Position numbers and translations under genes: made by a program. Source: a virus. Taken from it: a DNA stretch of 63,578 bases. The stretch is from the IMG/VR virus record IMGVR_UViG_3300030497_000009; one strand, 5' to 3'. The notes beneath the pieces were generated by a model that saw nothing but the letters and a program-made list of their open reading frames with translations, was not told where the DNA came from and ran no database searches. The stretch's first letter is position 1; each line of letters opens with the position of its first letter. Positions 1,730-63,148 of this stretch are shown one piece after another.

Positions 1730-1732
1730 AGT

Positions 1733-3660: not shown

Positions 3661-3666
3661 GGGGGA

Positions 3667-3957
3667 ATGACGATGGGACTACAACTTACAAAGACAACTT
3701 CAGCTGGGTTCACCGTTGAAAATGCATACGCTAGAATAGACACTATAAGTGGTAATAAAAACTATCTCTATTTTTCACTTAACACCTACGTTTCGAGAGA
3801 AGCGTTCCTGTCTGGTAAAAGCTTTGTAGCACAAGAGTACTATTCCTTCCAACCTTCTGTGAGTGCGTGGTCTGAGAATTTCATCAGACAAGCGTATTTC
3901 TACCTAAAGGCAACTCCTGCGTACAAAGACGCTATCGACGTTATTGAAATCCCTTAA
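3667..3957 (+). CDS. Small tail-fiber-associated protein (possible assembly chaperone)
   Basis: 96 aa directly after a fiber gene. Composition (YARID..QAYFYLKATPAY..A.DV) resembles phage fiber accessory proteins. Confidence 0.5.
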   Translation: MTMGLQLTKTTSAGFTVENAYARIDTISGNKNYLYFSLNTYVSREAFLSGKSFVAQEYYSFQPSVSAWSENFIRQAYFYLKATPAYKDAIDVIEIP

Positions 3958-3981
3958 CACCCTTTCGAGGGTGTTTTGTTT
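3955..3981 (+). terminator. Rho-independent terminator
   Basis: AACACCCT TTCG AGGGTGTT followed by T-rich tail. Confidence 0.75.
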
Positions 3982-4043
3982 CACATAATTGTGCGACAAC
4001 AGGATAGATATTTTGTTTGACTACAAGAATGGAGGTGTTACCT

Positions 4044-7835: not shown

Positions 7836-7848
7836 GGAGGAATGAACT

Positions 7849-11181: not shown

Positions 11182-11195
11182 AAGGAGGAGATTAA

Positions 11196-13232: not shown

Positions 13233-13244
13233 GGAGGAGATTAA

Positions 13245-15083: not shown

Positions 15084-15095
15084 GGAGGAGATTAA

Positions 15096-16904: not shown

Positions 16905-16918
16905 AGGAGGAATGACCT

Positions 16919-20455: not shown

Positions 20456-21107
20456 TGATGGCTGGGAACCACCCGATGCGTCTCATAACCATAAGCCGAT
20501 AGAATATGAAATAAACGAAAATGGTTGTTGGATTTGTGTATCACATGGAAACTACCACCCAAAGAGAAGACCTCGTGTGAAGCGCAATAGCAAAATGTTT
20601 AACATTCCTAGGTTGTCATACGAGTTTCACAATAACGAAAAGATACCGGAGGGTATGTATATTCTTCATTCTTGCGACAACAAGAAATGTTTGAATCCAG
20701 CCCACCTTCGAGTTGGAGACCAACAAGAGAACATGGATGACGCTAAAGAGCGTAACCGCGTAAACAGGGAACGTAAACGACTAGACGAGGTTTCTGCGTA
20801 TCAAATAAAATATCTTATTGCGTCAAGGATGTTCTCAGATAGGGAGATTGCAGAACAATACGGTGTCCAACAGAAAACAGTTCGCTCTATACGTATCGGA
20901 AAAAGATGGTTTGACCTTGTCTGTGAAACAAACTTTTCTGACAAGCATTTATCTAAAGCGAAAATGAATCAAAAGAAATTGCTGTCTCGTGAAGAGAAAC
21001 TGGAAGTTAAGAGATTATTAAGCGAGGGTTACGGAACTGGTGAGCTAGCTGAGCGCTTTGGAGTTTCCACCTCGACTATTAAACATATAAGGAGAAATTA
21101 TGAGTAA
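20439..21107 (+). CDS. Free-standing HNH homing endonuclease with C-terminal HTH domains
   Basis: GCW..; ILHSCDNKKCLNPAHL..G...NM.D motif, then two HTH-like segments (REIAEQYGV, ELAERFGVS). Overlaps both neighbours. Confidence 0.85.
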   Translation: MKKIFDDGWEPPDASHNHKPIEYEINENGCWICVSHGNYHPKRRPRVKRNSKMFNIPRLSYEFHNNEKIPEGMYILHSCDNKKCLNPAHLRVGDQQENMDDAKERNRVNRERKRLDEVSAYQIKYLIASRMFSDREIAEQYGVQQKTVRSIRIGKRWFDLVCETNFSDKHLSKAKMNQKKLLSREEKLEVKRLLSEGYGTGELAERFGVSTSTIKHIRRNYE

Positions 21108-30540: not shown

Positions 30541-31185
30541 ATGGGATATTTACCTCAAGGACATGGCTTCATAGAAGTGATAACAGGTCCTATGTTTGCT
30601 GACAAGACTACGACATTTCTACGAGCTATTGAAAGAGCCACGATTGGTGGTAAAGTTGCGATGGTATTTAAGCCTGATGTAGATACCCGTGATGAGGAAG
30701 ACGTAATTGGAACGCATAATGGTGACGGGTTATATGCTACGACGATTCCAGTGGACAACCCTAGATTAATATTGGAGGAAGTTGATAAATACCCTTCTGC
30801 TGATCCTATTGGTATCGATGAAGGGCAGTTTTTCTCTGATGAACTCGTAGATGTCGTTGAGATACTTGCGAACGCTGGAAAGCGCGTGATTATCACTGGA
30901 GTTGACATGGATTACCGTTGTCTTCCGTGGAGTCCCATGGATAAGCTTATGGCTGTTGCCGAAATAGTACATAAGCAAACTGCCGTGTGTGAACAGTGTG
31001 GTAAACCAGCTAGTAAAATACAACGATTCACCAACGGTAAGCTATCCCGATGGGATGAACCGACTGTTGTCATTGGAGATAAAGAACCAAAAGAACATGA
31101 AGAGCTAAAAGTTAAGCACTCTTACGAGCCTAGATGCCGTGACTGTTGGAAAACGCCACCTAAATTGTTGGGAGGAAACAAATGA
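30541..31185 (+). CDS. tdk: Thymidine kinase
   Basis: GPMFADKT, IGIDEGQFF, CEQC...YEPRCRDC. Confidence 0.92.
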   Translation: MGYLPQGHGFIEVITGPMFADKTTTFLRAIERATIGGKVAMVFKPDVDTRDEEDVIGTHNGDGLYATTIPVDNPRLILEEVDKYPSADPIGIDEGQFFSDELVDVVEILANAGKRVIITGVDMDYRCLPWSPMDKLMAVAEIVHKQTAVCEQCGKPASKIQRFTNGKLSRWDEPTVVIGDKEPKEHEELKVKHSYEPRCRDCWKTPPKLLGGNK

Positions 31186-32516: not shown

Positions 32517-34964
32517 ATGTTTAGATTATCAGAAGAATTTATTGCGAAATACAAAGGAAAGCCAGCACCGTTTGGTATGATTGGTGGAGTTACCTATAAA
32601 CGAACGTACTCACGACCTGTCTACAAGAATGGTAAGATGAAAGACCGTGAGGACTGGGTTGACACGATCCGACGTGTAGTTGAAGGTAACATGAACCTTG
32701 GAATTAAAAACGGTGACCCAACGGCTACAAAAGAGTGGGCAGAAGACGCTTTCCATTATTTCTACCACATGGCGATTATGCCTCCGGGACGTGGACTCTG
32801 GATGATGGGTACGGATTACGCTACTTTACGTGGTGGTGACGCGCTGAATAACTGCTGGTATACAGCTGTACGACCTCAGAGCTATGAAGATATCTTAATG
32901 TTCAGAAACCAGCAATACATCTTTACGAAGCGACATGAGAAGATGGTATCATTCCCATTCGTATTTATGTTTGACCGTGCGATGCTTGGTGGAGGGGTTG
33001 GGTTTGGTGCTAACCGTCGTAACCTTAACCAGATGCCAGGAGTTTCAACTAAAGTTAACCTTAAAATCTTCCTTCACGAGAACCACCCTGACTGGGATCG
33101 TATTAAATCAAGTGAAGAATACTCTCGAATTAAAGATATCTTAACATCTGATAAACAAGAAGTTCAAGAGCTAGTTGACAACGGTGGTGAATACTACCTA
33201 GCTACTGACGAGCGAGAAGGTTGGAACATTTCTGTTCGTGAAACTATCGATGGACACTTTACCGAAAAGCCTGAAGTAACGTTAATCGTTGACTTGTCTG
33301 CTATCCGTGAGTACGGGGCTGACATTAAAGGTTTCGGTGGAACAGCATCAGGTCCTCTTCCATTAATCGCGGCATTAAACGATGTTAACTACATCTTAAA
33401 CTATCGTGTTGGAGGAAGAATGACGAGCGCTGACGCGTTGGACATTATGAACCTTTTAGGGCGCTGTGTAGTAGCTGGTAACGTCCGTCGTACAGCTTTA
33501 ATCGCTTTAGGTGACGCAGACGACGCAGACTATGTTGAAGCGAAAAACTACAAGCTTGTAGAGCCGATTATGGAGAAAGATGAAAACGGTTGGACTAAAT
33601 GGGAAACGAACGAATTTGGACGTATGGTTCAGGTACGTAAACCGTTTGAAATTGTAGTTGGTGAAATTGCGAAGAAACTTTCTGAAGGCAGAGTAGCTGT
33701 TGACGACCTTGCTGTTAATATTCAAGATTCAAATGACACGTGGGCACAAGCCGAGAAAGAAGCGCAAGAGCTTTTCGACCTCGCATTTAAGCAAGAGAAT
33801 CACCGTTGGGCATCTAACAACTCTGTTTACACTCATGAAATGTTCGATGACCACCATTTCATCGCTGCTGGGATTATCGCGAACGGTGAGCCAGGAGTTG
33901 GTAACGAGTGGTTGATGAAGAACTTTGGACGTATCAAGGATGGTTTCCAAGAAGCTATCGATGGTGATGCTGAAGGACTAAACCCTTGTGCGGAGATTAC
34001 ATTAGAAAACGGTGAACCATGTAACTTGGTTGAGTTCCTACCTTTCGTTTGCGATAAGTATGGACTAGACCACAAGAGAGCGTTGGAGCTAGCTACGCAA
34101 TATACGTACCGTATCACGTTTGCCGATTATATCTGGCCAGTAACGGCTCGTGTAATTGCTAAGAATCGACGTATTGGTGTATCGATTACAGGTGCCCAAG
34201 ATTACTTCTTAGTAAAATATGGCCACTATGCGCTTAAAGAGTTCAAAGATGGAGATATCACTGAGCCGGTATTCCACCAAGAAATCGTTGACGAGCTAGA
34301 TGGTTGGTATGAATACGTAGTAGAAGTAAATAATGAGCATGCTGTGGCGCTTAATTCTAACCCTTCTATTAAACGTACAACGGTTAAACCATCGGGTACA
34401 GTAGCGAAACTTCCGGGAGTATCTTCTGGTATTCACTGGCACTACGCGCCATACATGATTCAACGTATCCGATTCCATGAAACAGATCCTAACTTAAAAG
34501 TGTTGGAAGCTGCTGGACTACCTATTGAGAAAGCTCAGAAAGAACCTAACACGATGGTTGTAGAATTTCCGATCAAGAACGCGAACGCTGACCACCCAGC
34601 ATTTAAGTCTTCTGGTGACGTATCGTTGGAAGAACAATTTGCTAACCAGTATCTATTTGCTTACGCTTGGGCTGATAACGCGGTTTCTGCTACGTTGACG
34701 TTCAAATTTGAAGAAACAGATAAAATCGAACCTCTATTAAAAGCTTACAATAATAGAATAAAGTCAACATCGTTACTTCCGTACAGTGGCAACGGTTACG
34801 TTCAAGCCCCTTGGGAGCCGATTGAAAAAGAAGAATACGAGCGACGTTTGAAAGAAATGAAGATGTCTATTGAAGATGCTTATGCATTAATTCCATTAAC
34901 TTTCGAAGCCGATGAAGATATGTTAGATTCTGACTGCGCTGGCGGTGCATGTCCGATACGATGA
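32517..34964 (+). CDS. nrdJ: Class II (adenosylcobalamin-dependent) ribonucleotide reductase
   Basis: RTYSR, PPGRGLW, ALNNC, GNVRRTA, NPCAEI, CNLVE, VKPSGT and C-terminal CAGGACPIR. No beta-subunit gene in the window. Confidence 0.92.
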   Translation: MFRLSEEFIAKYKGKPAPFGMIGGVTYKRTYSRPVYKNGKMKDREDWVDTIRRVVEGNMNLGIKNGDPTATKEWAEDAFHYFYHMAIMPPGRGLWMMGTDYATLRGGDALNNCWYTAVRPQSYEDILMFRNQQYIFTKRHEKMVSFPFVFMFDRAMLGGGVGFGANRRNLNQMPGVSTKVNLKIFLHENHPDWDRIKSSEEYSRIKDILTSDKQEVQELVDNGGEYYLATDEREGWNISVRETIDGHFTEKPEVTLIVDLSAIREYGADIKGFGGTASGPLPLIAALNDVNYILNYRVGGRMTSADALDIMNLLGRCVVAGNVRRTALIALGDADDADYVEAKNYKLVEPIMEKDENGWTKWETNEFGRMVQVRKPFEIVVGEIAKKLSEGRVAVDDLAVNIQDSNDTWAQAEKEAQELFDLAFKQENHRWASNNSVYTHEMFDDHHFIAAGIIANGEPGVGNEWLMKNFGRIKDGFQEAIDGDAEGLNPCAEITLENGEPCNLVEFLPFVCDKYGLDHKRALELATQYTYRITFADYIWPVTARVIAKNRRIGVSITGAQDYFLVKYGHYALKEFKDGDITEPVFHQEIVDELDGWYEYVVEVNNEHAVALNSNPSIKRTTVKPSGTVAKLPGVSSGIHWHYAPYMIQRIRFHETDPNLKVLEAAGLPIEKAQKEPNTMVVEFPIKNANADHPAFKSSGDVSLEEQFANQYLFAYAWADNAVSATLTFKFEETDKIEPLLKAYNNRIKSTSLLPYSGNGYVQAPWEPIEKEEYERRLKEMKMSIEDAYALIPLTFEADEDMLDSDCAGGACPIR

Positions 34965-38601: not shown

Positions 38602-40758
38602 ATGAATGTTATCGAAGCGAACTCTTGTTGGGATGCCTACCTTAAAACGCTGAAAGCGTTGTTAGACTCCAAACATCTTGATCTTCGCAACTTGTTTCTC
38701 CAAGTAAATAACACCGATGACAACTATATAACATCGTTACCCCATGCCCCAGACAACCTTCCTTGGTTCCTGCGTGTGAACTCCGATGTTGTAGAAGGTG
38801 AACTTGGTTTAGGAGCTGGGCTGGACGTCCGATACGACCAGAAACGTTTGGGGAGAGTTAAAGGACACGGTTCCTATGATTGGGGCTACCGCGATGAAAC
38901 CGGAAGACCAACCCAAGCTCTTTTAAATCTTATTATGGAAGATGACGAAATATTCCCAAATGTTGGGCGTGTTGGTGGTAATGGCCAGCTTCATTACGTT
39001 AAAGACCTTCTCATGAAGGATCCGACTTCAGATAAAGGCGTTGTATCATTTTGGAACTGGAAACGAGACTTGCTTGAATATACGAAAAGAAAGTATCTGT
39101 CACCAGAGATAGCAGGTGAGGAAGGCTGGTCTGATGCTCAGCACCAGCGTGTACCCTGCCCTGTCTCTTGGCATTTCACCGTCTCAAAAGAGGGCGTTAA
39201 TAACAACGTTTATTCGCGTTCGATGGTTTGGGATGACCATATTCACGATGACATGTTTCGATTTATCGAGCCTTGTAAATGGATAGGTGGCCACCTTCGT
39301 AGGAAGTCTGGTATCTTTACGCTAACAACCAACCGGCTGTGGGTTAAGAACTTTGAAGGTGATGTACGTGAACGGCTGACTGATTTATACGACTTCTGGA
39401 GCGGTCAACCACCTATCAGTAGTTATTATGACCCAATCGACTTCCCTTTATACGAAAAAGTTGAAGATTTTGAAAGAGACTGGAAACTAAAAGAGCTAGC
39501 GGAACAGGATTACCGGCTTGGAGCTTTTGAAGAGGGTGACAAGAAGCTTGACTTGATTAGCTCTGAATACTATAAGAACTGGGTGCGAGTGATTAAAGTA
39601 GCGGAAATGACGATATCCCATCATCATCTAGGACGTATGTTCAGACGTGGCATTCATAGCCGTGGAACGAAGAGAGCTATGGAGTATATAGATGAGTATA
39701 CGTTAATACGGGCTGTAAACGACGTACAGGGCATATACAGAGTTCAAACCGTGCAGTGGATAGTTAACTACTATTTACGTGCGAAACTCGATAGCGACGA
39801 ATATAAGACGTTTTTAGAGCTACTACCAGAAGAGCTACGAGAATTAACTCTTTTATCGTCTCTGCACCGCGTTAAAGAGGCAATAACAGAAGATGTAATA
39901 AAAGATATCCGTCCTGAATATCTTAAACTGAGCGAAGATTTCAGAAGCAAGGTTGTTCAAACAAAACTACCACCAACCAAAACGATAGGAGAAGATGAAA
40001 TGCGTAATCCGATTAATACTGATGTTAAATCCAAATTACTTGTAGTTGACCCATATGCTGGTGAGCGTGTGAACCGTAAATACCCTGCTTACATTGCTGA
40101 GTTGAAAAAGCGCGGTGAACTAGATATCTGTTATTTCCCTGTAGAGCCTTTCCACCGTAGAGAAAACAAACGACATGCTACCCAGCATGCCATGGAAGCC
40201 TGTGTAAAAGCATTCGTGCCTATCTCGTTAGAAACGAGACAAGAAATTCCAGCTTGGGCTATCGATGCGTTGTCACGTGATAAACGTAGTGAAGCGAGAA
40301 TCCAGATAGCTTCGATGGACGAGAAAAAGCAAAAGGTTTTATATCCATCGATGGCATCACCTGAAGAGCTTTTTAATTCGGTTGTACGTTGCTTTAACGC
40401 TGGTATTTACGTAGTTGTAAAGACTGCACCAATTATTCCACCTATTATGACTCCACACGATGTATTCCGAGTAGTTGACGCGGTACGAAGTATTGCTAGC
40501 AGTGTGGAAATCTGTTTCGCTTCGTTCGATGAGTCAGAGTATCCTGATTTAAAAGCGCGTGTGAAGAAAAGCGAGGTTGCTTTTGATGACATGTACGAGC
40601 TAGCTGAGGGAAGATACTTTGTTCGCCAATCATATCGACAAGAGTTCATTCGAAAGCTTATGCTGTTCACACAAGGGCAAAAGCTAAAACTGGAAGTTGT
40701 AAAAGAATGCTCTATCGAGGACGGAGAGGTTACAGGAGTGTTGCGCTTCGGGGAGTAA
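38602..40758 (+). CDS. Fusion of a divergent thymidylate-synthase fold and a degenerate SPL-like radical SAM domain
   Basis: N-terminus: QL..V..LL.KDPTS..V.SFWN..RD, PC(186) and RS(206). C-terminus: DPYAG.., ASMDE..LYP..ASP, GIYVVVKTAPIIP, with no CxxxCxxC. Confidence 0.65.
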   Translation: MNVIEANSCWDAYLKTLKALLDSKHLDLRNLFLQVNNTDDNYITSLPHAPDNLPWFLRVNSDVVEGELGLGAGLDVRYDQKRLGRVKGHGSYDWGYRDETGRPTQALLNLIMEDDEIFPNVGRVGGNGQLHYVKDLLMKDPTSDKGVVSFWNWKRDLLEYTKRKYLSPEIAGEEGWSDAQHQRVPCPVSWHFTVSKEGVNNNVYSRSMVWDDHIHDDMFRFIEPCKWIGGHLRRKSGIFTLTTNRLWVKNFEGDVRERLTDLYDFWSGQPPISSYYDPIDFPLYEKVEDFERDWKLKELAEQDYRLGAFEEGDKKLDLISSEYYKNWVRVIKVAEMTISHHHLGRMFRRGIHSRGTKRAMEYIDEYTLIRAVNDVQGIYRVQTVQWIVNYYLRAKLDSDEYKTFLELLPEELRELTLLSSLHRVKEAITEDVIKDIRPEYLKLSEDFRSKVVQTKLPPTKTIGEDEMRNPINTDVKSKLLVVDPYAGERVNRKYPAYIAELKKRGELDICYFPVEPFHRRENKRHATQHAMEACVKAFVPISLETRQEIPAWAIDALSRDKRSEARIQIASMDEKKQKVLYPSMASPEELFNSVVRCFNAGIYVVVKTAPIIPPIMTPHDVFRVVDAVRSIASSVEICFASFDESEYPDLKARVKKSEVAFDDMYELAEGRYFVRQSYRQEFIRKLMLFTQGQKLKLEVVKECSIEDGEVTGVLRFGE

Positions 40759-40783
40759 ATTTCCTCGAAGTTGGTTATATTAG
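40752..40783 (+). promoter_or_regulatory. Phage-specific promoter motif
   Basis: GGAGTA-N20-TATTAG. Confidence 0.65.
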
Positions 40784-40808
40784 GTAATAAGTTAAAGGAG
40801 GAATAGTT

Positions 40809-41480
40809 ATGAGTGAAGTAGAAGTGGTGCGCGAGTCGATTAAGATGGAACGTGTTGATATTATGGAAGCGATTGAAAGTGTAAAGGAACTGCCCACTGG
40901 TTTGAAGTTAGTAAACGTGCGAGGTACGAATGGCTCAGGTAAATCGACGATCCCGTTACAGATGCTGGCTAATGACCGCGAAGCGTACATGCTGACGTTA
41001 GAAGGTAAAGATGTTGCAACAGTTTTCCCTTCTTACGGATGGTTAGCTCTTGGTAAATACCGTAATGCTGCTGGGGGGCTTGATACAGTCCGTACAACCG
41101 ACGATATGAAGCGTATCTTGCAGTTGTGTAACCAACTACCGTTTAATATCCTAATGGAAGGTATCTTGGCTTCAACCGTATATAGTACGTACTCTGAGTT
41201 GTTACAGAAATACGAGAAAGTCAACCCTTTCCGTAAAGCTGGTGTAATGAGTATTGTTAACGATATGGACGTTGTTAAGGCTCGAATCATGAAGAGAAAT
41301 GGAGGGAAACAAATTAAATTTGAACAAGTAGAATCGAAATGGAGAACAGTTAAGAAAAACGTTCAGAAGTTTAAAGATGATGGGCTAGCTAGTTGGGAAA
41401 CGTCAAACCAAGAGATTGCGAAAGAAGAAACACTTGACTGGTTCTTTAAAGAGTTGGAAGTGAACATGAAAGATGCCTAA
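40809..41480 (+). CDS. P-loop kinase of the thymidine hypermodification type, paralog 1
   Basis: VNVRGTNGSGKST, LGKY....GG.D, LMEG, RI.KRNGGK. Confidence 0.8.
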   Translation: MSEVEVVRESIKMERVDIMEAIESVKELPTGLKLVNVRGTNGSGKSTIPLQMLANDREAYMLTLEGKDVATVFPSYGWLALGKYRNAAGGLDTVRTTDDMKRILQLCNQLPFNILMEGILASTVYSTYSELLQKYEKVNPFRKAGVMSIVNDMDVVKARIMKRNGGKQIKFEQVESKWRTVKKNVQKFKDDGLASWETSNQEIAKEETLDWFFKELEVNMKDA

Positions 41481-42471
41481 ATCTGAAAAGCTACTAGCAG
41501 TTGAAAGGGTTTATGGGTTACCTATTGAGAGCGTCCTTAAGGATTACGTTGAACAGGGTTTATACGCGTCGAAAATAACAGCTGAAATAAATGAAAAGCT
41601 TAGTGCTGTTGGAGAAAAAAGCGTAACCATAAGTTTCACAAGACGACAACTAAAGAACGCAGGTATCTCTGCTCCAAAGCCGGATCGAAGTAAAATATCA
41701 AAATTAGCTTCAAACACCCCAGAGGAACTTGAACGCAGAAGCAAAGCTATGAAAGAACGATGGCAACGCGATGATAGTCTGCGAAACAAAGTTAACAAAA
41801 GCCTAGAGGAACGCTGGGCAGACCCAGCTTATGTTGAGTTTATGTCGGTTATGAGTCAAAACCTCTGGAGTTCAGCTGAACACCGTGATAACATCGCTGA
41901 TAAATCGAGGGAACAGTGGAATAGTGGCCATGGTGAAGTGGTCATGGCCACTATTAGGGAGCTTTGGAAAGATGAAGAGCACCGTGAGAAAATGAAAGAC
42001 CTAACGATAGAACGCTGGAAGGATCCCCATTATCGTTCAAAGATGAAAGAGGTTATAAAATCCTGTTGGGCTGATCCTGAGTATCGTGAAAAGGTAATGT
42101 CCAACAGTGGGAGAAAAGATACTAAAATTGAGTTAGCTGTGAAAGACATACTTGAGTGTCTTAATATTGAATATGAGCATAACGCTTTTCTCTCTTTTGA
42201 TACCTTTTATTGCTTTCCTGATTTTAAGATAGCAAACAAAATAATTGAGTGCCAAGGTGATTTTTGGCATGCTAACCCAGAGATATACAAGAGCATCGAG
42301 GATCTTTCAGAAGTTCAACGAGTAAACGTTGAGCGTGACAAGCTAAAAAAGAAACACTATGAAGAGGGTGGATATGAAGTGTTGTACCTGTGGGAAACTG
42401 ATTTTAAGAAAAACTTAGTAGGTGTCAAAGAGAGTATTAAAAACTTTTTGGAGGTGAACATGGGTGGTTGA
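41473..42471 (+). CDS. Putative homing endonuclease: Trp-containing helical repeats plus Vsr/EDxHD-like nuclease
   Basis: About 7 repeats of type ERW.DP.YR.KM; C-terminal TKIE..PDF..IECQGDFWH..RD..K...GY.V..LWE. Confidence 0.75.
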   Translation: MPKSEKLLAVERVYGLPIESVLKDYVEQGLYASKITAEINEKLSAVGEKSVTISFTRRQLKNAGISAPKPDRSKISKLASNTPEELERRSKAMKERWQRDDSLRNKVNKSLEERWADPAYVEFMSVMSQNLWSSAEHRDNIADKSREQWNSGHGEVVMATIRELWKDEEHREKMKDLTIERWKDPHYRSKMKEVIKSCWADPEYREKVMSNSGRKDTKIELAVKDILECLNIEYEHNAFLSFDTFYCFPDFKIANKIIECQGDFWHANPEIYKSIEDLSEVQRVNVERDKLKKKHYEEGGYEVLYLWETDFKKNLVGVKESIKNFLEVNMGG

Positions 42472-43162
42472 AGTAGCTCGTAAACCGATTAAATTAACAA
42501 GATACGATATAAACGAGAAAATCAAAGAGCTAACCAAAACGGCTGTGTTACGTTTTAAAGAGAAGAATTTGAAGTGTGTGAACGTCCGTGGCTCCAACGG
42601 CTCTGGTAAGTCAACGATCCCTATTAAGATGCTTGCTGAAGATAAAGGAGCGTATATCCTGACTGACAGAGGTAAAGACGTAGCTACTGTACTGCCTAAC
42701 GTTGGATATGTACTCCTTGGTACATACCGAAATAAAACGGGGGGAGGTGATACGTCAACGTTTCAAGACAAGGAGTATACCAAAGAGATTCTTAGAAAGC
42801 TATGGGTAACACCTTTCCACGTTCTCTTTGAGTCTATGACTATCTCTGCTTCCTTTACGTTTTGGGCACAGGTGTTCAGCGAGTTTGCGCACGATTTAGC
42901 TTTTACCAACCGCCAGATAGGGGTAATGAGTATTATTATTCCTTTAGAGGTAAATGAGCAACGTATAAAGAAACGTAATGGTGGTAAAGATATTAACATG
43001 AAGTACGTGGCTGGTAAGCTACGAACTGTTACAAACAACGTAGAAAAGTTTACAGCTATCGGTGTTCAAAGCTGGGCTGTTGATAATACTAGTGTAAGTC
43101 TTGACGAGGTTTATGACTGGTTCCACGAGCAAGTAAACGAGAACATGGAGGGATTAGGATGA
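42464..43162 (+). CDS. P-loop kinase of the thymidine hypermodification type, paralog 2
   Basis: VNVRGSNGSGKST, LGTY....GGGD, RIKKRNGGK. Aligns with 40809 over its full length. Confidence 0.8.
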   Translation: MVEVARKPIKLTRYDINEKIKELTKTAVLRFKEKNLKCVNVRGSNGSGKSTIPIKMLAEDKGAYILTDRGKDVATVLPNVGYVLLGTYRNKTGGGDTSTFQDKEYTKEILRKLWVTPFHVLFESMTISASFTFWAQVFSEFAHDLAFTNRQIGVMSIIIPLEVNEQRIKKRNGGKDINMKYVAGKLRTVTNNVEKFTAIGVQSWAVDNTSVSLDEVYDWFHEQVNENMEGLG

Positions 43163-44295
43163 GTTTAGCAGAGTCGAATAACAACCCGTTTGTAAATTAT
43201 GGTGAAGTACCAGACCACGAGTTTTTACTATCTATGGAAAGAAAGGTACGTCCTCACTGGGAACCTCAGTATATTAATCTACCTGACGAAACAGTGAAGC
43301 TACGAGTTGACCCAGCAACTGGAAAGCCACTGTGGGAAATGTATTTTGAGAATATGGTTGAACGTCAGAATATCTGGTATAAGCGAGTAGTGCTTGGCCA
43401 GTCAGCCCCGTGGACAACCGATCCTGTCATGGGTCAGTTCCATTTTACGAATGTTGATAGAAAGTTAGACCGCGTAACGCTCTATTATATTGACAACGTA
43501 CTTCCTAACCTTAAAGACAACGATGAGTCTCGTAAATATCTATTATTGAACACGTTCATTTACCGTTTGTTCTGTCGTATTGAGACTTGGGATGTTATCG
43601 GTTATCTTCATCCTGAAACGTTCGAAAGTGACTGGGATAGAGCTAAGACCAACCTCCGTGCGCGTCGTGAGTCAGGTGAGCCGGTCTTTACATCGGCTTA
43701 CTACGTTAATGACCTAAAGGTTGCGAACGATGACCCAGCGACTAACAAGAATAAAACAGAGAACGCGATTAAACTTATCCAGTGGATTAAAGACAACCTT
43801 GAAGAGCTTTCTGCTTTCGTATTCAACCCTGCGAACAATATGGAATCGGTTGTGGAGTATCTAACACGTATTCCTGGCATTGGCTTATTCAACTCTTATG
43901 AAGCTTGCTTAGACTTGGGGATGGTAACAGAGTTCACTGGTATCCCATTCGTTGAGTGGACAGCAGACTATTTCACTAATGTCGGTCCGGGATGTAAGCG
44001 CGGTATTGATTACGTATTCGAAGACAAAGGAAACATGAGCTACCTTGACATTGTGTACTTCGTTACGAGTGTGTATGAACACGAGTTCAAGCGATTAGGC
44101 TTAAAGTACCTCTTCCAAGAAGGTACGACTGAACTGGATTTACGTTGCTGTGAAGGCTGGTTCTGTGAGTCTAGTAAATACTTTAACTATTGGACTACTG
44201 AGAACGGGTATGACTTCGCTAAAGGTAAACGTCCGAAAAAGAAAATGAAGCTCCAAACCGACGATGTTAACTGGTTGAAGCCAAGAAATAAGTAA
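43159..44295 (+). CDS. 5-hmdU DNA kinase (aGPT-Pplase1 family)
   Basis: ERQNIWYKR..G..APWTTDP....HFTNVDR.LDR, F..AY, G.G.F.SYE...DL, NVGPGCKRG and CE..KY signature. Confidence 0.85.
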   Translation: MSLAESNNNPFVNYGEVPDHEFLLSMERKVRPHWEPQYINLPDETVKLRVDPATGKPLWEMYFENMVERQNIWYKRVVLGQSAPWTTDPVMGQFHFTNVDRKLDRVTLYYIDNVLPNLKDNDESRKYLLLNTFIYRLFCRIETWDVIGYLHPETFESDWDRAKTNLRARRESGEPVFTSAYYVNDLKVANDDPATNKNKTENAIKLIQWIKDNLEELSAFVFNPANNMESVVEYLTRIPGIGLFNSYEACLDLGMVTEFTGIPFVEWTADYFTNVGPGCKRGIDYVFEDKGNMSYLDIVYFVTSVYEHEFKRLGLKYLFQEGTTELDLRCCEGWFCESSKYFNYWTTENGYDFAKGKRPKKKMKLQTDDVNWLKPRNK

Positions 44296-44338
44296 TAACA
44301 CAGTCACCTCTATATTACTACTATGGAGGTGATTTCTC

Positions 44339-44518
44339 ATGGGTAAAGAAGCAAAAGACTACTTGCCAGGATTAGGCAACGCATTTCACGTTAAGAGCGA
44401 TGAGATTGACTTTGAACCACAAGTTCAGGCTAACTCTACAGCGACTGACGTTGCTGGTTTAAAAGCTGACCTTAACGCGTTACTAGCGAAGCTACGTGCT
44501 GCTGGTGTAATTAAATAA
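44339..44518 (+). CDS. Small head-fiber-like protein (59 aa, not in ORF track)
   Basis: GGAGGTG RBS; QANSTATDVAGLKADLNALLAKLRAAG motif typical of phage head-fiber proteins. Confidence 0.7.
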   Translation: MGKEAKDYLPGLGNAFHVKSDEIDFEPQVQANSTATDVAGLKADLNALLAKLRAAGVIK

Positions 44519-44529
44519 TATACTTACAA

Positions 44530-44555
44530 AGACTTCCTTCGGGGAGTCTTTTTTT
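44530..44555 (+). terminator. Rho-independent terminator
   Basis: AGACTTCC TTCG GGGAGTCT plus T-run. Confidence 0.85.
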
Positions 44556-44566
44556 ATTGACAGCAG

Positions 44567-44599
44567 GGAGTAAATTCCTGCTGTTTTCGCTTTTATTAG
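44567..44599 (+). promoter_or_regulatory. Phage-specific promoter motif
   Basis: GGAGTA-N21-TATTAG then GTGTAAG. Confidence 0.7.
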
Positions 44600-44623
44600 G
44601 TGTAAGTTAATAAAGGAGGAAAC

Positions 44624-45796
44624 GTGATGTATACTTTTGCAAACGAAAACCCATCACAGCTTTGTATCGATGCCGCATTTACGGTACTTAGACATGGTAA
44701 AGAATTAGCACCTAGAGGAAAGAAAGTATTGGAGTTACATCCGGCTGCTGTCGAGTTTTTAAAGCCGACTAACCGCGTAACTTTCGTAAAAGGCAGAAAA
44801 ATCAACCCATTCTTCCAACTAGCTGAAAGCTTTTGGATTTTACTAGGTAGAGCCGACGTTGAGTGGCTTACAAGATATAACGAAAATATGAAATCTTTCT
44901 CTGATGATGGAGTTTACTTTAATGCTCCTTACGGTGAGAGAATGCGCGCTTGGGGATTACACCGCGCGTCTGGTGATGTCTTTAACCCAATTGACCAGCT
45001 TCACGATGCGTTCCTTAAGCTAGAAGCTGATCCTGATACGCGACAAGCCTTTGTAACGATTGGCGATCCTCGCTATGATAACGCTGACTATACGTTGGGC
45101 GGTGGAAAAGATATCGCTTGTAACCGTGAGATTTACTTTAAGATTCGTGATGGTAAACTAGACATTACGGTTTCGAATAGAAGCAACGATGTTTGGTGGG
45201 GTACTTGGGGTGCTAACTTGGCTCAGTTCTCTACGATTCAGGAGTATATGGCGTCTATGTTAGGCGTTGGTATTGGTAAATATACGCAGTTCACCGATTC
45301 TCTTCACATCTATACTGAAGATTATGGTTCTAAGATTACGGATGATGTTTTAGAAGCCTATGGAATCGAAGACTTTAGAAACGTTGCTGAAACGCCTGAA
45401 GTTGAACACTTCGAGTTCGAAAACGAACCGCGTATGGAAGTGCTTGGCTTTGAAGAGGGTGAAGCGCTTATTCGTAAGCTTGAATACCTTGTTGAGTCAC
45501 TTATCCACGTGAACGATAACATCGTAAATACAGAGATTGCGTATAATACGATGAACATTATTAAAGGTAGTCCTGATCCGTACTTCCGTATGACGCTTTA
45601 TGCTATGATGGCTTATCGTGCTCACAAGCTAGGTAACGCTGAAGTTATGGTAGAAGCTCTACGCCTAATGGCTGACGGGCAGTGGAAGCTCTCTTGCTTA
45701 TTCTTCCTTTATAATAAGTATAAAGGTATCGAAGAGTTTGAAGACTTATATAGCCACTATACAGACGCTCAAAAGGCGTATATCGAAGGTAAATAA
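44624..45796 (+). CDS. dUMP hydroxymethylase (thymidylate synthase family)
   Basis: NPFFQLAE.FW.L.GR, APYGER, DTRQA, DIACN, NRSNDVWWG..GAN, SLHIY. Adjacent to the 5-hmdU DNA kinase. Confidence 0.85.
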   Translation: MMYTFANENPSQLCIDAAFTVLRHGKELAPRGKKVLELHPAAVEFLKPTNRVTFVKGRKINPFFQLAESFWILLGRADVEWLTRYNENMKSFSDDGVYFNAPYGERMRAWGLHRASGDVFNPIDQLHDAFLKLEADPDTRQAFVTIGDPRYDNADYTLGGGKDIACNREIYFKIRDGKLDITVSNRSNDVWWGTWGANLAQFSTIQEYMASMLGVGIGKYTQFTDSLHIYTEDYGSKITDDVLEAYGIEDFRNVAETPEVEHFEFENEPRMEVLGFEEGEALIRKLEYLVESLIHVNDNIVNTEIAYNTMNIIKGSPDPYFRMTLYAMMAYRAHKLGNAEVMVEALRLMADGQWKLSCLFFLYNKYKGIEEFEDLYSHYTDAQKAYIEGK

Positions 45797-45850
45797 GTTG
45801 CGAGGGGTAAACTGCCCCTCATCCTATAAAACGTTCTGGAGGTAAATGAT

Positions 45851-46288
45851 ATGGCTAAAACGAAACAAACGATTACAGGTGATTTGATTATTGGTGTGGA
45901 TTTCGACGGTAACATCACGACTGAACCGGATATGGGTAAAAAGTTGGTGTTACAACCGAATTGTAAAGATGTTCTGTTGAGTTGGTGTGAAAAGGGTTAT
46001 ACGCTCGTATTATGGACGTGCAGAACAGGTCCGAGTTTAAACGAAGCATTAAGCTTTCTAGTTGAGAACGACCTGTACCACATCTTTACGAGTATTAACG
46101 ACCAAGTTCCGTTGGTTGTGACAAAGTACCACCCACATGTAGCTCGTAAGTTAGGGGCTGACATTTACTTCGACGATAAGAACGCGATGACGACTGTGAA
46201 CTGGTTGGATTATGCGGCATTCGTTGAAGACAAAATTAAACTGGAAGGTTGGGTTATTGATGGAGCGACAACAGAAGGTGCATACTAA
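45851..46288 (+). CDS. HAD-superfamily phosphatase
   Basis: VDFDG, LWTCR, RK..ADIYFDDK. Confidence 0.8.
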   Translation: MAKTKQTITGDLIIGVDFDGNITTEPDMGKKLVLQPNCKDVLLSWCEKGYTLVLWTCRTGPSLNEALSFLVENDLYHIFTSINDQVPLVVTKYHPHVARKLGADIYFDDKNAMTTVNWLDYAAFVEDKIKLEGWVIDGATTEGAY

Positions 46289-46727
46289 TGAAGATTGGAT
46301 TAAGTTTAAGAAAGAGATTCACGACAAGCTACACGATATGCTTGATCCGCAGTTAGTCGCTGACATCACGGTTGACGAGCTTGTAGAGGTATATGCTAAG
46401 TTGCCTTACGTGCATCCTGAAATGGAGCTTAGAGAAGACAACCTTCTCATGACGACTGTATTTGTTTACCTTTCTGAAATTCAGTATAAGAAAGAAGGCA
46501 CGTATGGCAGAAGCTTCTGCAAGCGCGGAGAAATGGACATCTTCTTTAATATGGCTCGTAAGTTTGACCGATTAGAGAATATGATGTTGCACGATAAGAA
46601 AGACGAAGTTGGTGAAGGTAAGACGGACACTGTGGGTGACGAAGCGAACTATGGTATGCTTTGGATGACTTACATTCTTCGTGAGAAACCTGAACTATTT
46701 AAAAACTGGTTGAAAAATAATTTCTGA
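46260..46727 (+). CDS. DUF1599/Nmad1-like (MazG-like all-helical) nucleotide-modification-associated protein
   Basis: KK...YG.S...G.....ARKFDRL...DT.GD.ANY motif. Confidence 0.7.
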   Translation: MERQQKVHTNEDWIKFKKEIHDKLHDMLDPQLVADITVDELVEVYAKLPYVHPEMELREDNLLMTTVFVYLSEIQYKKEGTYGRSFCKRGEMDIFFNMARKFDRLENMMLHDKKDEVGEGKTDTVGDEANYGMLWMTYILREKPELFKNWLKNNF

Positions 46728-46823: not shown

Positions 46824-47135
46824 ATGAATAAAGAAGATATCGTAAAGTACATGGCAGACAACTCAGACAAAGCGTTAACACAAAAGGAAGCAAGCCTAGC
46901 AGTAGACTTATTCCGTGACGCAATTAAATCAGGTTTAAAAGCAGGCGATGATATCAACCTAGTTGACTTCTTCACTTTAAAGCCTAACGGACGTCCAGCT
47001 CGTAAAGGGCGCAACCCTCAAAATGGTGAAGAAATTCAAATTCCAGCTTCTGTTAACCTGAAGTTCAAACCAGCTAAGAAGCTTGCTGCAACGGTGTCCG
47101 AGTTAAATCCAGAAGATTACATGAAAAAGAAGTAA
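46824..47135 (+). CDS. HU/IHF-family DNA-binding protein (TF1-like)
   Basis: MNKEDIV..RPARKGRNPQNGEEIQIPA..FKPAK.L. Confidence 0.92.
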   Translation: MNKEDIVKYMADNSDKALTQKEASLAVDLFRDAIKSGLKAGDDINLVDFFTLKPNGRPARKGRNPQNGEEIQIPASVNLKFKPAKKLAATVSELNPEDYMKKK

Positions 47136-47305: not shown

Positions 47306-49981
47306 ATGAATTGTGATAAATGCGACATTTCCAAAACGTGCGTGCCCTGCTTGATGGGTACGGGTAGGAAGTCGGCTAAGATTATGTTTGTAGCTGATAA
47401 TCCCACTGACTTCGAGAGTGATGATGGTCTGTGGATGAATGGTAAGGCTGGAAACCTTTTCCGTGACCTCCTAACCCAGATAGGGCTTGATGTAGACAAA
47501 GATTGCTACTTTACAGGGGCTATTAAGTGCCCGACCCCTTCAGACGATAAGGGCGTGCAAAGACAGCCTTCAAGAGACGAAATTGCGAACTGTAGTCCGT
47601 ATCTTGACGCTGAGATTAAAATAGTAAACCCTGAAATTATCGTTCCGATGGGTAATGTAGCGTTGAAAAAGATTATGAACAAAACTGGTATTACGAAGTT
47701 CCGTGGTAAGGCGATTAAACAGGATGACCGCATTATCTTCCCGATGGTACATCCTACGACAATCTTCCGACAGCCGGTTCACGCGAAGAACTTCACAACC
47801 GACTTAGGAAACCTTGGTAAGCTGATTAAAGAGGGTGATGCCTTCTTAGAAAAGAAAGAGGTTGATTACAGATATCTTGAAACGATAGATGAAGCGATAG
47901 CTGAGATTGTTAGGTTGAATACAGAAGCTGACTCTGACATTATCGTATTTGACTTAGAGACCACTGGACTTGACCCTTTCCGTGATGACTCAAAGATTGT
48001 CTGTATCTCGTTAACCGATAAGACACACTATGGTGTAACGATACCTTTAGAGCATCGTCAGTTTACTTGGGCTGATGAAGAGCTTTACCGGCTTAAACAG
48101 CATCTTAAAGAGCTTATGGAAAACCAGAACGTTAAGAAGATGGGACATAACGGAAAGTTCGATACGAAGTGGTTGAAAGCTGTCTATGACATCGATACGA
48201 AGGGCTATGCGTTTGACCCGATGGTTGCGCATTATATCACTGTTAGTGAAGAGCGTGGTGGTCACGGGCTTAAAGAGTTAGCGTGGGAGCTCACCGATAT
48301 GGGTGGGTATGATAATCCTCTTGACGACTACAAGAAAGAAAATGGGATCGTGGGTAACTACGATATGATTGACTGGGAAATCCTTCGAGAATACGCTGCT
48401 GCTGACGTAGACTGTACAATGCGTTTATACGAAGTCTTTAACCCGAAACTGGGCGAACACGAGAAGTGGCCATCCTTATTCGAGTTGTATATGGAGTCTT
48501 CTGAAGCTCTGCGTGACTTAGAGGTAAACGGTATAAAGCTAGATAAAGAGCGTGCTGAAGAGTTCCAAGAGCTTTACTTGAAGAAGATAGCTCAAATTGA
48601 GGATAAGCTTCGTATGTTCCCTGAGATTGTCCAAATAGAGCGCGAAAAGCAGGATATGTTCGAACGTCGTAAGCTAGAAATGAAGAAACCAAAAGAAGAC
48701 CGTGACCCTGAGATTCTGAAATGGAATAAGTTTAAAAACTTTAAATTTAGTTTCAGCTCACCTAACCAGTTGCGAGAACTTCTATTTGAGAAGTTGGGTT
48801 TGGACACTCCATTCCTGACTGACAAAGGTAAGCTTAAACCTAAAAGCCAACTAACGATTCAGGATTACTCAACGGGTAAAGAAACGCTAGCATACTTAGA
48901 AGACAAACACCCTATTGCTACCTTAATGAGTGAATGGCGTAAACTAGAGAAAGTTTATGGAACGTATATAGCTCCTGCGGTTGACTGGATTGGTAACGAT
49001 GGGCTTGTACATCCTAGCTTTAACTTAACTGGTACAGTAACTTCCCGTTTGAGTTCAGAGAAGCCGAATGCGCAAAACTTCCCACGTAAGATTAATAACC
49101 CTGCGGAGTTCGGATATCATTACGGTCCGAAAAAGCTATTCGTTAGCCGGTTTGGCGATGAAGGCGTAATCGTACAGTTTGACTATTCTCAATTAGAACT
49201 TCGTGTTGCCGCAATCTTTTCGGGTGACCCTAACCTTATCCAAGCATATCGTGATGGAAAAGATATTCATAGATATGTCGCGTCTAAAGTACACGGTATT
49301 CCTGAGGAAGAGGTAACAGATGACCAGCGTACAGCTGCGAAAGCCGTTGGTTTCGGTCTATTGTATGGTAAAGGAGCGCGATCCCTAGCACAAGATATGG
49401 GTGTGTCTCTTGAAGAAGCTGAAGACTTCATCGCAAAATACTTCGAAGAGTTTGTTGGAGTTAAGCGTTGGGTTGACGGAACGAAAAAGCAAGTTAAAGA
49501 ACAGAAGTATGTTGAAACATTAGCCGGTTTCCGTCGTAGACTCCCAGGAGTTGACTCAAACGACAGAGGTATTCAAGCCGATGCCTTTAGGCAAGCGATT
49601 AATAGTCCGATTCAGGGTTCAGGTTCATCTATGACTCTTAAATCTATTGTTCTGATTAACAGTATGTTTAAGAAGTTTGGCTTGCGTTCTTGCCTTGTTA
49701 TTACGGTTCACGATAGTATCGTGGCTGACGTTTATGTACCTGAGTTGAAGAAGGTCTACACGATTATGAAACACGTTATGGAGCATTTGCCTTTTGATTG
49801 GATTACTGTTCCAATCGTATCTGATGCTGAGGTAGGGCGTGACTATGGTTCTCTAGTTGGCATCGACGACATCGAAGAGGTGTTAGCAGAGGGCGTATTT
49901 GAATATATAGATAGAAAAGTAGCAGAGAAGAAAAAGAAAGATTACGAAAAAGCCGGAATACCTTTGTTGGCTACGGAGTAA
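47306..49981 (+). CDS. Family A DNA polymerase with N-terminal UDG-family-4-like domain and 3'-5' exonuclease
   Basis: CDKC/KC/C UDG-like N-terminus; FDLETTG, HNGKFD and YAAAD exonuclease motifs; DYSQLELR, KAVGFGLLYG and TVHDS polymerase motifs. Confidence 0.95.
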   Translation: MNCDKCDISKTCVPCLMGTGRKSAKIMFVADNPTDFESDDGLWMNGKAGNLFRDLLTQIGLDVDKDCYFTGAIKCPTPSDDKGVQRQPSRDEIANCSPYLDAEIKIVNPEIIVPMGNVALKKIMNKTGITKFRGKAIKQDDRIIFPMVHPTTIFRQPVHAKNFTTDLGNLGKLIKEGDAFLEKKEVDYRYLETIDEAIAEIVRLNTEADSDIIVFDLETTGLDPFRDDSKIVCISLTDKTHYGVTIPLEHRQFTWADEELYRLKQHLKELMENQNVKKMGHNGKFDTKWLKAVYDIDTKGYAFDPMVAHYITVSEERGGHGLKELAWELTDMGGYDNPLDDYKKENGIVGNYDMIDWEILREYAAADVDCTMRLYEVFNPKLGEHEKWPSLFELYMESSEALRDLEVNGIKLDKERAEEFQELYLKKIAQIEDKLRMFPEIVQIEREKQDMFERRKLEMKKPKEDRDPEILKWNKFKNFKFSFSSPNQLRELLFEKLGLDTPFLTDKGKLKPKSQLTIQDYSTGKETLAYLEDKHPIATLMSEWRKLEKVYGTYIAPAVDWIGNDGLVHPSFNLTGTVTSRLSSEKPNAQNFPRKINNPAEFGYHYGPKKLFVSRFGDEGVIVQFDYSQLELRVAAIFSGDPNLIQAYRDGKDIHRYVASKVHGIPEEEVTDDQRTAAKAVGFGLLYGKGARSLAQDMGVSLEEAEDFIAKYFEEFVGVKRWVDGTKKQVKEQKYVETLAGFRRRLPGVDSNDRGIQADAFRQAINSPIQGSGSSMTLKSIVLINSMFKKFGLRSCLVITVHDSIVADVYVPELKKVYTIMKHVMEHLPFDWITVPIVSDAEVGRDYGSLVGIDDIEEVLAEGVFEYIDRKVAEKKKKDYEKAGIPLLATE

Positions 49982-62548: not shown

Positions 62549-63148
62549 TTGGCTATTAATTTGTCTAAAGGTGGTTCGATTGACCTAACGAAGAATAATC
62601 CTGGATTATCCAAAGTAACGCTTGGGTTATCTTGGGGAAAGGCTTCTTCCGGTGGTGGACTGCTTGGTGCTTTATTCGGTGGTGGTAATTCTGGCGGTGC
62701 TATTGACCTTGACTCAGCTATCTTAATGGTTGACGATGCAGGTAGAAAGTACGATTTGGTCTACTTTGGACACCGTAGAAGTCAAGGTGTTTATCACAAA
62801 GGTGATGACCGTACTGGTAATAATAAGTTTGGTGACTATGACAACGAAGAGATTGAAATTGACTTAAATAAAGTTCCGACGCATGTTACAGAGCTTAACA
62901 TTATCGCTCATATCTATAATGCTGGAAGTAAACACTTTGGTCAAGTTAAGGGCGCGTATGCTCGTGTGTTAGAAACTGACACTCGTAACGAGCTAGTACG
63001 ATACAACCTTGACGAGCAAGGTAAAGGCATTAAAGGCATGGTTGTTGGTAAGGTTTACCGATACCGTGGAGAGTGGAAATTTAAAGCTCTTGGCCAAGGT
63101 ACTTCTGAACATAACTTAAGCAATATCGTTCGTACTATTTTATCATAA
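62549..63148 (+). CDS. terD: TerD-family stress protein
   Basis: INLSKG..LTK, LGLSW, IDLD, H.GD.RTG, E.I.IDL, YR..GEWKFKALGQG. Confidence 0.9.
   Translation: MAINLSKGGSIDLTKNNPGLSKVTLGLSWGKASSGGGLLGALFGGGNSGGAIDLDSAILMVDDAGRKYDLVYFGHRRSQGVYHKGDDRTGNNKFGDYDNEEIEIDLNKVPTHVTELNIIAHIYNAGSKHFGQVKGAYARVLETDTRNELVRYNLDEQGKGIKGMVVGKVYRYRGEWKFKALGQGTSEHNLSNIVRTILS

Follow-up and report, generated by a model that had tools for sequence, protein, structure and literature searches.

A probable SP10-type thymidine hypermodification locus with a thymidylate synthase-like candidate for the part of the amino-acid:DNA transferase

Gene content and affiliation of the locus

The window analyzed here is the entire 63,578-nt stretch of viral DNA in record IMGVR_UViG_3300030497_000009, and our subject is a gene block at its positions 38602-46727, which an earlier sequence-only reading had described as a hypermodification locus devoid of a recognizable amino-acid:DNA transferase (AADT). 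Every gene of the block lies on the plus strand, at the same coordinates as in that reading; encoded are a two-domain protein of 718 amino acids (aa), two P-loop kinases (K1 and K2) separated by an endonuclease gene, a 378-aa protein of the HMUDK_hel family, a small conserved open reading frame (ORF), a dUMP hydroxymethylase-type homologue of thymidylate synthase (TS), a haloacid dehalogenase (HAD)-type phosphatase, and a DUF1599-like protein (Table 1). We regard the block as probably an SP10-type locus for post-replicative thymidine hypermodification, carried by a Herelleviridae (SP10-like) phage of Bacillus-type hosts; as a locus, it is an ordinary further member of the SP10 group, of a kind already known. 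Two conserved cysteine enzymes, the 718-aa and the 378-aa proteins, are candidates for attaching the side chain, and our preferred reading, drawn from comparative sequence analysis and structure models, is that the TS-like N-domain of the former may play the part of the clade-2 AADT of phages M6, ViI, and PhiW-14.

In tblastn searches of GenBank phages, the 718-aa protein finds full-length matches only in SP10-like Bacillus phages (61% identity in YungSlug and ~50% in SP-10, Goe26, SBSphiC, and Nachito), its C-terminal third being matched also in the Lysinibacillus phages LysYB1 and LysYB2. The 378-aa protein is 63 to 70% identical to its counterparts in those SP10-like and LysYB phages (68% against the C-terminal half of SP10 gp186). 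At the nucleotide level, the locus has no match among GenBank phages by megablast. Gene order is common to the window and its relatives from an upstream sigma-like gene through the HU and PolA genes, with orthology and synteny to SP10 gp185-gp191 and to the loci of YungSlug, Nachito, and LysYB1. Shared with SP10, in the same order, are the protein joining a TS-like to a radical-SAM-like domain, a PF18748 kinase, a PF18723 domain, the dUMP hydroxymethylase, the DUF1599-like and HU-like proteins, and a DNA polymerase I (PolA) fused to a uracil-DNA glycosylase (UDG) domain; protein identities range from 38 to 68%, and PF18724, the family of canonical AADTs, is absent from both. Several features set the window apart from SP10: kinase and PF18723 domain form a single protein, gp186, in SP10 but are encoded by separate genes in the window, Nachito, LysYB1, and YungSlug (fused forms are 61 to 73% identical to the 378-aa protein); the kinase is duplicated around the endonuclease gene; the 718-aa protein is without the ~180-aa acidic linker of SP10 gp185; and the HAD phosphatase gene has no match in the SP10 locus.

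For SP10, Table 3 of Lee 2018 assigns the kinase to gp186N, aG/PT-PPlase1 to gp186C, and the radical SAM protein to gp185 (PMC5889632), and both gp186 and its kinase domain alone make 5-phosphomethyldeoxyuridine (5-PmdU) in vitro (Lee 2021, PMC8989533). SP10 virions contain alpha-glutamylthymidine plus thymine and no 5-hydroxymethyldeoxyuridine (5-hmdU), most of the 5-hydroxymethyluracil (hmU) having been turned into thymine at the polymer level; SP10-like metagenomic contigs are mentioned in the same work (PMC8989533). Thus, the base of SP10 is established, whereas that of the phage in the window is predicted from genes alone. The sequence-only reading had considered a different pathway, leading to an undescribed base or to persistent phospho-hmU; because the block is orthologous and syntenic with SP10 gp185-gp191, an SP10-type pathway is the likeliest reading instead.

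Table 1. Features of the hypermodification block and of the two genes that follow it
Feature	Coordinates	Strand	Evidence and remarks
718-aa two-domain protein, SP10 gp185 orthologue	38602..40758	+	TS-fold N-domain (aa 1-~455, modeled), short linker, radical-SAM-derived C-domain (aa ~468-718); no Pfam match; PHROG: "DNA repair photolyase" (C-half), thymidylate synthase (N-half)
K1, 5-hmdU DNA kinase copy 1, 223 aa	40809..41480	+	PF18748 1.5e-27; P-loop domain alone
Direct repeat copy 1, 15 bp, TTGGAAGTGAACATG	41454..41468	+	End of K1; read directly
Vsr-like endonuclease gene, 332 aa	41473..42471	+	TIGR00632 vsr 2e-10, PF03852 2.3e-5, both under cut-off
Direct repeat copy 2, TTGGAGGTGAACATG	42448..42462	+	End of endonuclease gene, immediately before K2 start; read directly
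K2, 5-hmdU DNA kinase copy 2, 232 aa	42464..43162	+	PF18748 1.4e-16
HMUDK_hel protein, 378 aa, orthologue of SP10 gp186 C-terminal half	43159..44295	+	PF18723 1.9e-51
Small conserved ORF, 59 aa	44339..44518	+	phrog_18880 6e-14
dUMP hydroxymethylase-type TS homologue, 390 aa	44624..45796	+	PF00303 1e-13, phrog_5131 1e-105
HAD-type phosphatase (BT0820-like), 145 aa	45851..46288	+	NF046079 3.2e-16 (under equivalog cut-off); PDB 2obb 5.4e-7
DUF1599-like protein, SP10 gp189 orthologue, 171-aa ORF	46212-46727, probable start 46260 (residue 17)	+	Atlas features
HU/TF1-like DNA-binding protein, SP10 gp190 orthologue	46824..47135	+	PF00216 3.3e-25; synteny
Family A DNA polymerase with N-terminal UDG domain	47306..49981	+	PF00476 3.6e-98, PF03167 1.2e-23

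Search for a canonical amino-acid:DNA transferase

Current Pfam names the former clade 2 "ADDT, amino acid:DNA transferase" (PF18724, on which M6 gp51 scores 1.4e-46) and the former clade 1 "HMUDK_hel" (PF18723), which takes in M6 gp55, the ViI-type gp160 homologue, SP10 gp186C, and the 378-aa protein of the window. Among the ~57 window ORFs scanned (the long ORFs and most of the shorter ones, with a few ORFs of less than ~110 aa outside the scan), none reaches or approaches PF18724, and six-frame tblastn of the window with M6 gp51 (E > 8) and with the N-domain of the LysYB1 orthologue found none. ORF scans and tblastn agree, therefore, with the earlier statement that a canonical AADT (formerly aGPT-Pplase2) is not identifiable in the window, and the search for AADTs, pyridoxal phosphate (PLP) enzymes, and glycosyltransferases that had been proposed with it turned up none among the window ORFs; nor did Pfam scans of these ORFs contain an FAD lyase or an acetyltransferase. 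The broader wording, that no amino-acid:DNA transferase is recognizable, stands for PF18724 but not for the superfamily, of which the 378-aa protein, with its modeled AADT fold and ExxxC motif (see below), appears to be a member.

A canonical PF18724 transferase might also lie elsewhere in the genome and serve a pathway of the M6/ViI/PhiW-14 type: the 63.6 kb examined come from a genome of ~137 kb or more, and the hypermodification genes of ViI are scattered (gp67, gp160, gp226, gp243, and gp247; PMC5889632). However, the complete genomes of SP-10, YungSlug, and Nachito, which have the same TS-like locus, each contain one PF18748 and one PF18723 protein and no match to PF18724, to PF18746, or to the profile (A5) of the LysYB1-type AADT-like domain described below, and in none of four complete genomes do the TS-like and AADT-like types occur together. 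Because three complete relatives are without such a gene, we consider its presence outside the window very unlikely, and a canonical AADT is not expected anywhere in the genome of this phage. Nor does SP10 pair its kinase with aGPT-Pplase2, a premise on which the sequence-only reading had drawn, as Table 3 of Lee 2018 gives this enzyme as "N/d" in SP10 (PMC5889632) and the whole-genome searches just mentioned are negative. Since SP10 itself and its relatives do without it, the absence of aGPT-Pplase2 is the normal state of the SP10 group.

The same absence, together with the two kinase copies, would suit a phage in which no transferase exists and 5-PmdU persists as the final base. Yet the virions of SP10, which shares this gene set, contain glutamylthymine and thymine but no hmU (PMC8989533), and two conserved cysteine enzymes with intact motifs are encoded in the same block of the window, all of which makes a persistent phospho-hmU extremely improbable.

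The 718-aa protein: a TS-like domain joined to a radical-SAM-derived domain

The 718-aa protein belongs to a narrow family, with 14 close homologues and a total of 18 proteins at E <= 1e-3 among 1.84 billion representatives. Direct sequence search of the PDB with the protein gave nothing meaningful, and the N-domain has no PF00303 match and only phrog_160 (3e-6) to connect it with TS, its remote relatives reaching 17 to 22 bits on PF00303 against a cut-off of 24.3. When its model (predicted local distance difference test [pLDDT] score of 68.8) is submitted to Foldseek, the top 50 PDB matches are all members of the TS/hydroxymethylase family (prob 1.00, E 3e-8 to 1e-4), led by MilA (5jnh, E 3e-8). 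Two motifs, R183-x-P185-C186 and Y204-S-R206-S207, are invariant in the N-domain, and [HY]QRxPC is retained in 12 of 14 remote family members. In an hhalign comparison with the family of the phage's own dUMP hydroxymethylase, the DQL, WN(P/W), PC, and RS motifs align, with P185-C186 facing P-C166 of that enzyme.

By its modeled structure, the N-domain is a TS-superfamily fold with a conserved, putatively catalytic cysteine. It resembles ThyA, dUMP hydroxymethylase, and MilA in fold, in the P-C context of the cysteine, and in the R-S strand motif that follows; it differs from them by large basic insertions (aa 53-130), by an added helical subdomain (aa 255-455), and by its fusion to a radical-SAM-derived domain in a gene separate from that of the ordinary dUMP hydroxymethylase. 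Since its gene stands apart from that of the ordinary enzyme and is linked in genomes to a DNA kinase, we infer that the substrate of the protein lies at the DNA level. A TS-like domain fused directly to a kinase was looked for, and none was found.

The C-domain is homologous to the M6 gp53 glycinyl-thymine isomerase, a radical-SAM enzyme (26% identity over ~176 residues by blastp, E 3e-14), and to the SplB-like "DNA repair photolyase" family, and it matches the profiles phrog_9252 (5e-11) and NF033668 (1.5e-7). However, its cluster loop is deleted: where gp53 has PYGGYCTVGCAFCY..., the window protein has DPYAGE-RVNRKYP. The CxxxCxxC motif is absent from the window protein, its 14 homologues, SP10 gp185, and LysYB1 M3_0048, and the C-domain contains no conserved set of three cysteines as a counterpart to C125/C129/C132 of gp53. 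Since the loop is gone in every member examined, the C-domain cannot be filed as a radical-SAM enzyme, and a functional radical-SAM tailoring step like that of M6 gp53 is rejected. The "TS-rSAM fusion" of the sequence-only reading is thus borne out for the TS-fold N-domain and for the homology of the C-domain, but not as a protein capable of radical-SAM chemistry; the same correction applies to the habit of labeling gp185-type proteins "radical SAM," although they are unable to bind the cluster. The cluster-less domain would serve instead as a DNA- or substrate-binding module.

Displacement of an AADT-like domain in two phage lineages

The LysYB1 orthologue of the 718-aa protein keeps the C-domain (44% identical) but carries a different N-domain, whose PF18724 score of 24.1 bits falls short of the 26.2-bit cut-off. 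This LysYB1-type domain defines an AADT-like family with an invariant motif (K-x-C-S-F-R-N-L-F-K...R-Y-G-G-F-H-H-D-R; alignment A5), whose neighbors in the Atlas are PF18724 clusters; sequence search of the PDB with the A5 profile gave nothing meaningful. Members stand alone or are joined either to PF18748 kinases or, in SP10-like contigs, to the C-domain; in one such contig (147 kb), this fusion takes the position that it has in LysYB1, within a locus that otherwise matches that of the window. C-domains from the TS-like and AADT-like versions intermix on the phylogenetic tree.

The same exchange is seen in an unrelated lineage of ~45-55-kb phages. There, one locus (L019, 7001-10663) has an AADT-like domain fused to the kinase, whereas its relative (L026, 7001-10383) has a separate TS-like protein followed by the kinase, DUF1599, and TS genes; their flanking genes are 45 to 62% identical and their kinases 51%. 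Within 7 kb, L026 has neither PF18723 nor PF18724. Two more remote TS-like members adjoin PF18748, PF18723, and canonical TS genes. Sequence comparison, then, places the TS-like module where relatives have an AADT-like domain in two unrelated phage lineages, and it is mainly because of this displacement pattern that we favor the module as the stand-in for an AADT.

Two observations arise from these loci in their own right. In L026, the gene set is reduced to a minimum, namely TS-like protein, kinase, DUF1599, and TS. Moreover, Pfam-based transferase screens will miss the AADT-like family, members of which lie at L004:6096-7115, L018:7001-9136, and L019:7001-8608, as it falls just under the PF18724 threshold.

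The HMUDK_hel protein and its resemblance to AADTs

The separate "5-hmdU DNA kinase" listed by the sequence-only reading must be the 378-aa protein, which is not a kinase but a member of PF18723 (175.5 bits against a cut-off of 25), its start codon overlapping the stop codon of K2 (ATGA). An AlphaFold2 model of this protein, built with 23 homologues, has a pLDDT of 92.7, and an exhaustive VIA search of 48,161 PDB chains places first 8z2m_A (Z 9.6, root-mean-square deviation 4.3, 226 residues), which is PaMx11 gp46, a solved 5-PmdU glycinyltransferase (8Z2M). The next matches are queuine-salvage DUF2419 proteins and helix-hairpin-helix (HhH) glycosylases, and Z values between helical folds call for caution; moreover, the match to an AADT is seen only in this exhaustive search and not in Foldseek, where the model returns a weak AGOG glycosylase match alone (E 0.027). 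Direct sequence searches of the PDB with the protein and with its family profile (A3) gave nothing meaningful, and neither M6 gp51 nor the AADTs of the PDB show significant sequence or profile similarity to it (hhalign of A3 against M6 gp51, Prob <1%).

Within A3, R329, E332, C336, E337, and K340 are nearly invariant. The E332-x3-C336 pair, conserved at >=90%, occupies a position that is co-linear with that in AADTs as judged by distance from the C-terminus, and its ExxxC spacing resembles that of E243/C247, which are essential in PaMx11 gp46 (PMC11472151), and of the ETVLC stretch of M6 gp51. As modeled, the 378-aa protein has an AADT-like helix-hairpin-helix fold; in a comparison with the clade-2 AADTs (M6 gp51, PaMx11 gp46 [8Z2M], ViI gp247, PhiW-14 gp109, and the SH-Ab 15599 DADT), this fold is what it shares with them, and its co-linear ExxxC may correspond to their catalytic pair.

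These resemblances bear on an arrangement in which the roles are reversed, HMUDK_hel being the amino-acid:DNA transferase and the protein made up of the TS-like and C-domains reducing the exocyclic methylene to thymine, i.e., performing the second half-reaction of thymidylate synthase on DNA. Apart from the glycinyltransferase as best structural match and the mirrored glutamate-cysteine pair, it would be in keeping with Aravind's original naming and with Table 3 of Lee 2018, which put gp186C in the pyrophosphorylase family (PMC5889632), with the conversion of most SP10 hmU to thymine at the polymer level (PMC8989533), and with the suitability of a TS fold for hydride transfer to a C5 methylene, as we would expect from its chemistry. 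Three lines of evidence point the other way: in M6, the clade-1 protein gp55 is dispensable for glycine transfer in vitro, clade 2 and the kinase being both necessary and sufficient (PMC8989533); the LysYB1-type phages keep HMUDK_hel and have, in addition, an AADT-like domain exactly at the TS-like position; and L026 combines the TS-like protein with a kinase and has no HMUDK_hel within 7 kb. On balance, we view a reversal of roles as rather unlikely, and in our preferred reading HMUDK_hel would be the clade-1 partner common to all these systems.

Proposed pathway and its likely product

By homology, the 390-aa TS homologue would make 5-hmdUMP before replication, while the HAD phosphatase, the DUF1599-like protein, and an upstream dUTPase would reshape the nucleotide pool; the UDG-fused PolA would then build hmU DNA, and K1 and K2, homologous to the assayed SP10 gp186, would phosphorylate 5-hmdU in DNA to give 5-PmdU. 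In the step that follows, the cysteine enzymes may attack C6 of 5-PmdU, expel the phosphate, and expose a C5 exocyclic methylene, to be captured by an amino acid, which in SP10 is glutamate, or else by hydride, the latter yielding thymine. This chemistry, up to the exposed methylene, is that of the clade-2 AADTs and is proposed for both candidates, although the fold of the TS-like candidate is unrelated to theirs. A thiolate at C6 that acts on C5 via an exocyclic methylene has been discussed with reference to Witmer's 1981 model (PMC8989533), and, because TS and AADT types would both use a C6 thiolate and a C5 exocyclic methylene, it fits a TS-like stand-in.

We propose, tentatively and as something short of a probable conclusion, that a small, unnamed branch of the TS superfamily, marked by [HY]QRxPC, acts through its catalytic cysteine on 5-PmdU in DNA as a non-homologous replacement of the AADT, and hence is the enzyme behind the alpha-glutamylthymine and/or the polymer-level thymine of SP10-type phages, an enzyme foreshadowed by the TS-like mechanism of Witmer in 1981. 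Several points weigh against our overall reading. The N-domain model is of only moderate quality (68.8), the segment that holds C186 scores <50, and hhalign gives the TS alignment a probability of just 34%. Of the remote TS-like members, two lack a kinase gene within 7 kb. What links HMUDK_hel and the LysYB1-type family to the AADT superfamily is structure, a Pfam score under threshold, and Atlas neighbors (the last two in the case of the LysYB1-type assignment), and hhalign of A5 against A3 is not significant (Prob <1%). HMUDK_hel, with its AADT fold and motif, could itself be the transferase, the roles of the gp185-type and HMUDK_hel proteins being predictions from sequence and models, and the absence of a canonical transferase applies to the 63.6-kb window. 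Finally, N- and C-domains that are 56% and 39% identical to those of SP10 leave room for a donor other than glutamate.

That last point leads to the possibility of an SP10-like pathway with an undescribed base, formed with another amino acid or amine donor or by further tailoring of the product. Besides the limited identity to SP10, which is 68% in HMUDK_hel, it could draw on the finding that two pocket residues sufficed to switch donor specificity in the Pplase2 family (PMC13458397) and on the host of the nearest relative, which is not B. subtilis-like (YungSlug grows on B. thuringiensis). The gene content, however, is that of SP10, and Pfam scans of the window contain no PLP enzyme, FAD lyase, acetyltransferase, glycosyltransferase, or functional radical-SAM enzyme; we thus judge a novel base unlikely.

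For more than 40 years, it has been asked which enzymes of SP10-type phages attach glutamate and make thymine at the DNA level; comparative evidence sharpens this question by leaving two conserved cysteine enzymes as candidates. Were the TS-like module to prove the transferase or the reductase, an enzyme of TS fold would for the first time be known to work on a DNA polymer, and site-directed derivatization of DNA would gain a new tool.

Duplicated kinases and a probably inserted endonuclease gene

K1 and K2, described earlier as two paralogous P-loop proteins, are indeed both PF18748 members; they are 43% identical to each other, and both keep the Walker A P-loop and most family motifs. K1 (Walker A GTNGSGKST intact) is 44 to 52% identical to the single kinases of SP-10, YungSlug, LysYB1, and Nachito, whereas K2 is more diverged (36 to 43% to its orthologues). 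Relatives carry one kinase each, but ViI also has two such kinases (PMC8989533). We rejected the idea that two kinases denote a distinct pathway, given that ViI has two and that the duplication in the window is tied to a probable endonuclease insertion; K2 as the counterpart of SP10 "kinase 2" gp218 (Lee 2018) was likewise rejected, gp218 being undetected by PF18748 in the SP-10 genome.

The endonuclease gene, which together with the 59-aa ORF had been passed over in the earlier reading, encodes a C-terminal Vsr-like PD-(D/E)xK nuclease domain preceded by about seven Trp-periodic helical repeats, and the orthologous loci of four relatives contain no homologue of it. The 15-bp direct repeats at its ends agree at 14 of 15 bases. 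From these sequence features, the 332-aa protein is probably a free-standing homing endonuclease inserted between the kinase copies, and an insertion that brought or created the second kinase copy would be the simplest account of the arrangement.

The endonuclease gene of the window occupies an intergenic slot that in YungSlug, where it separates the genes for the kinase and HMUDK_hel, holds a Tad2-like (PF11195, anti-Thoeris) ORF (L003:12512-13042). The window probably contains another mobile endonuclease, of the HNH type, its gene (20400-21107) overlapping the end of a helicase gene (18719-20455).

Nucleotide-pool genes and neighboring functions

The dUMP hydroxymethylase assignment of the sequence-only reading is upheld as a predicted activity: in addition to its profile matches (Table 1), the TS homologue is 46% identical to SP10 gp188, annotated as a dUMP hydroxymethylase, and 46 to 54% identical across gp188 and its orthologues. 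The HAD phosphatase, likewise sustained by its matches, is conserved in YungSlug, LysYB1, and Nachito and, judged from sequence, is a candidate dTMP/dNMP phosphatase that would reshape the nucleotide pool. Support for the DUF1599/MazG-like protein is divided, with language-model features in agreement (DUF1599, "nucleotide modification associated domain 1," in 27 of the 30 nearest Atlas clusters; score 0.92) and no match in Pfam or NCBIfam; the protein is 48 to 76% identical to its relatives, and its Atlas record starts at residue 17. By tblastn, the 59-aa ORF is matched only in the YungSlug locus (36 residues, E 5e-7), the LysYB1 annotation having a small "head fiber protein" gene at this position.

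Terminator-like hairpins, which are consensus matches only, suggest four transcription units. The run of genes in the window leads from tailspike-like genes through helicases, primase, dUTPase, thymidine kinase, and ribonucleotide reductase to the hypermodification block, downstream of which follow the HU-like protein, the UDG-fused PolA, a gp32-like protein, RecA, and a sigma factor. The UDG-fused PolA is 58 to 69% identical to those of relatives and is the polymerase type of phages with modified thymine, the polymerases of SPO1 and SP-10 having been named as UDG fusions (PMC13697223).

Other features of the window

Thymidine kinase (30541-31185; PF00265, 1.2e-35) is encoded by the window, though this phage should exclude thymidine nucleotides from its pool; the enzyme may serve salvage or act on hmdU. 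At 32517-34964, a single 815-aa ribonucleotide reductase with a B12-type class II insertion domain (PF21995) takes the position held by class I alpha and beta subunits in SP-10, YungSlug, LysYB1, and Nachito. Nine successive plus-strand ORFs of 96 to 1272 aa fill positions 38-18487, at least seven of them with pectate-lyase or beta-helix domains (PF12708, PF13229) and one with CBM5/12, an unusually large set of tailspike or depolymerase-like genes. Near the other end of the window, at 62549-63148, lies the gene of a TerD-domain protein (PF02342, 6.6e-49).

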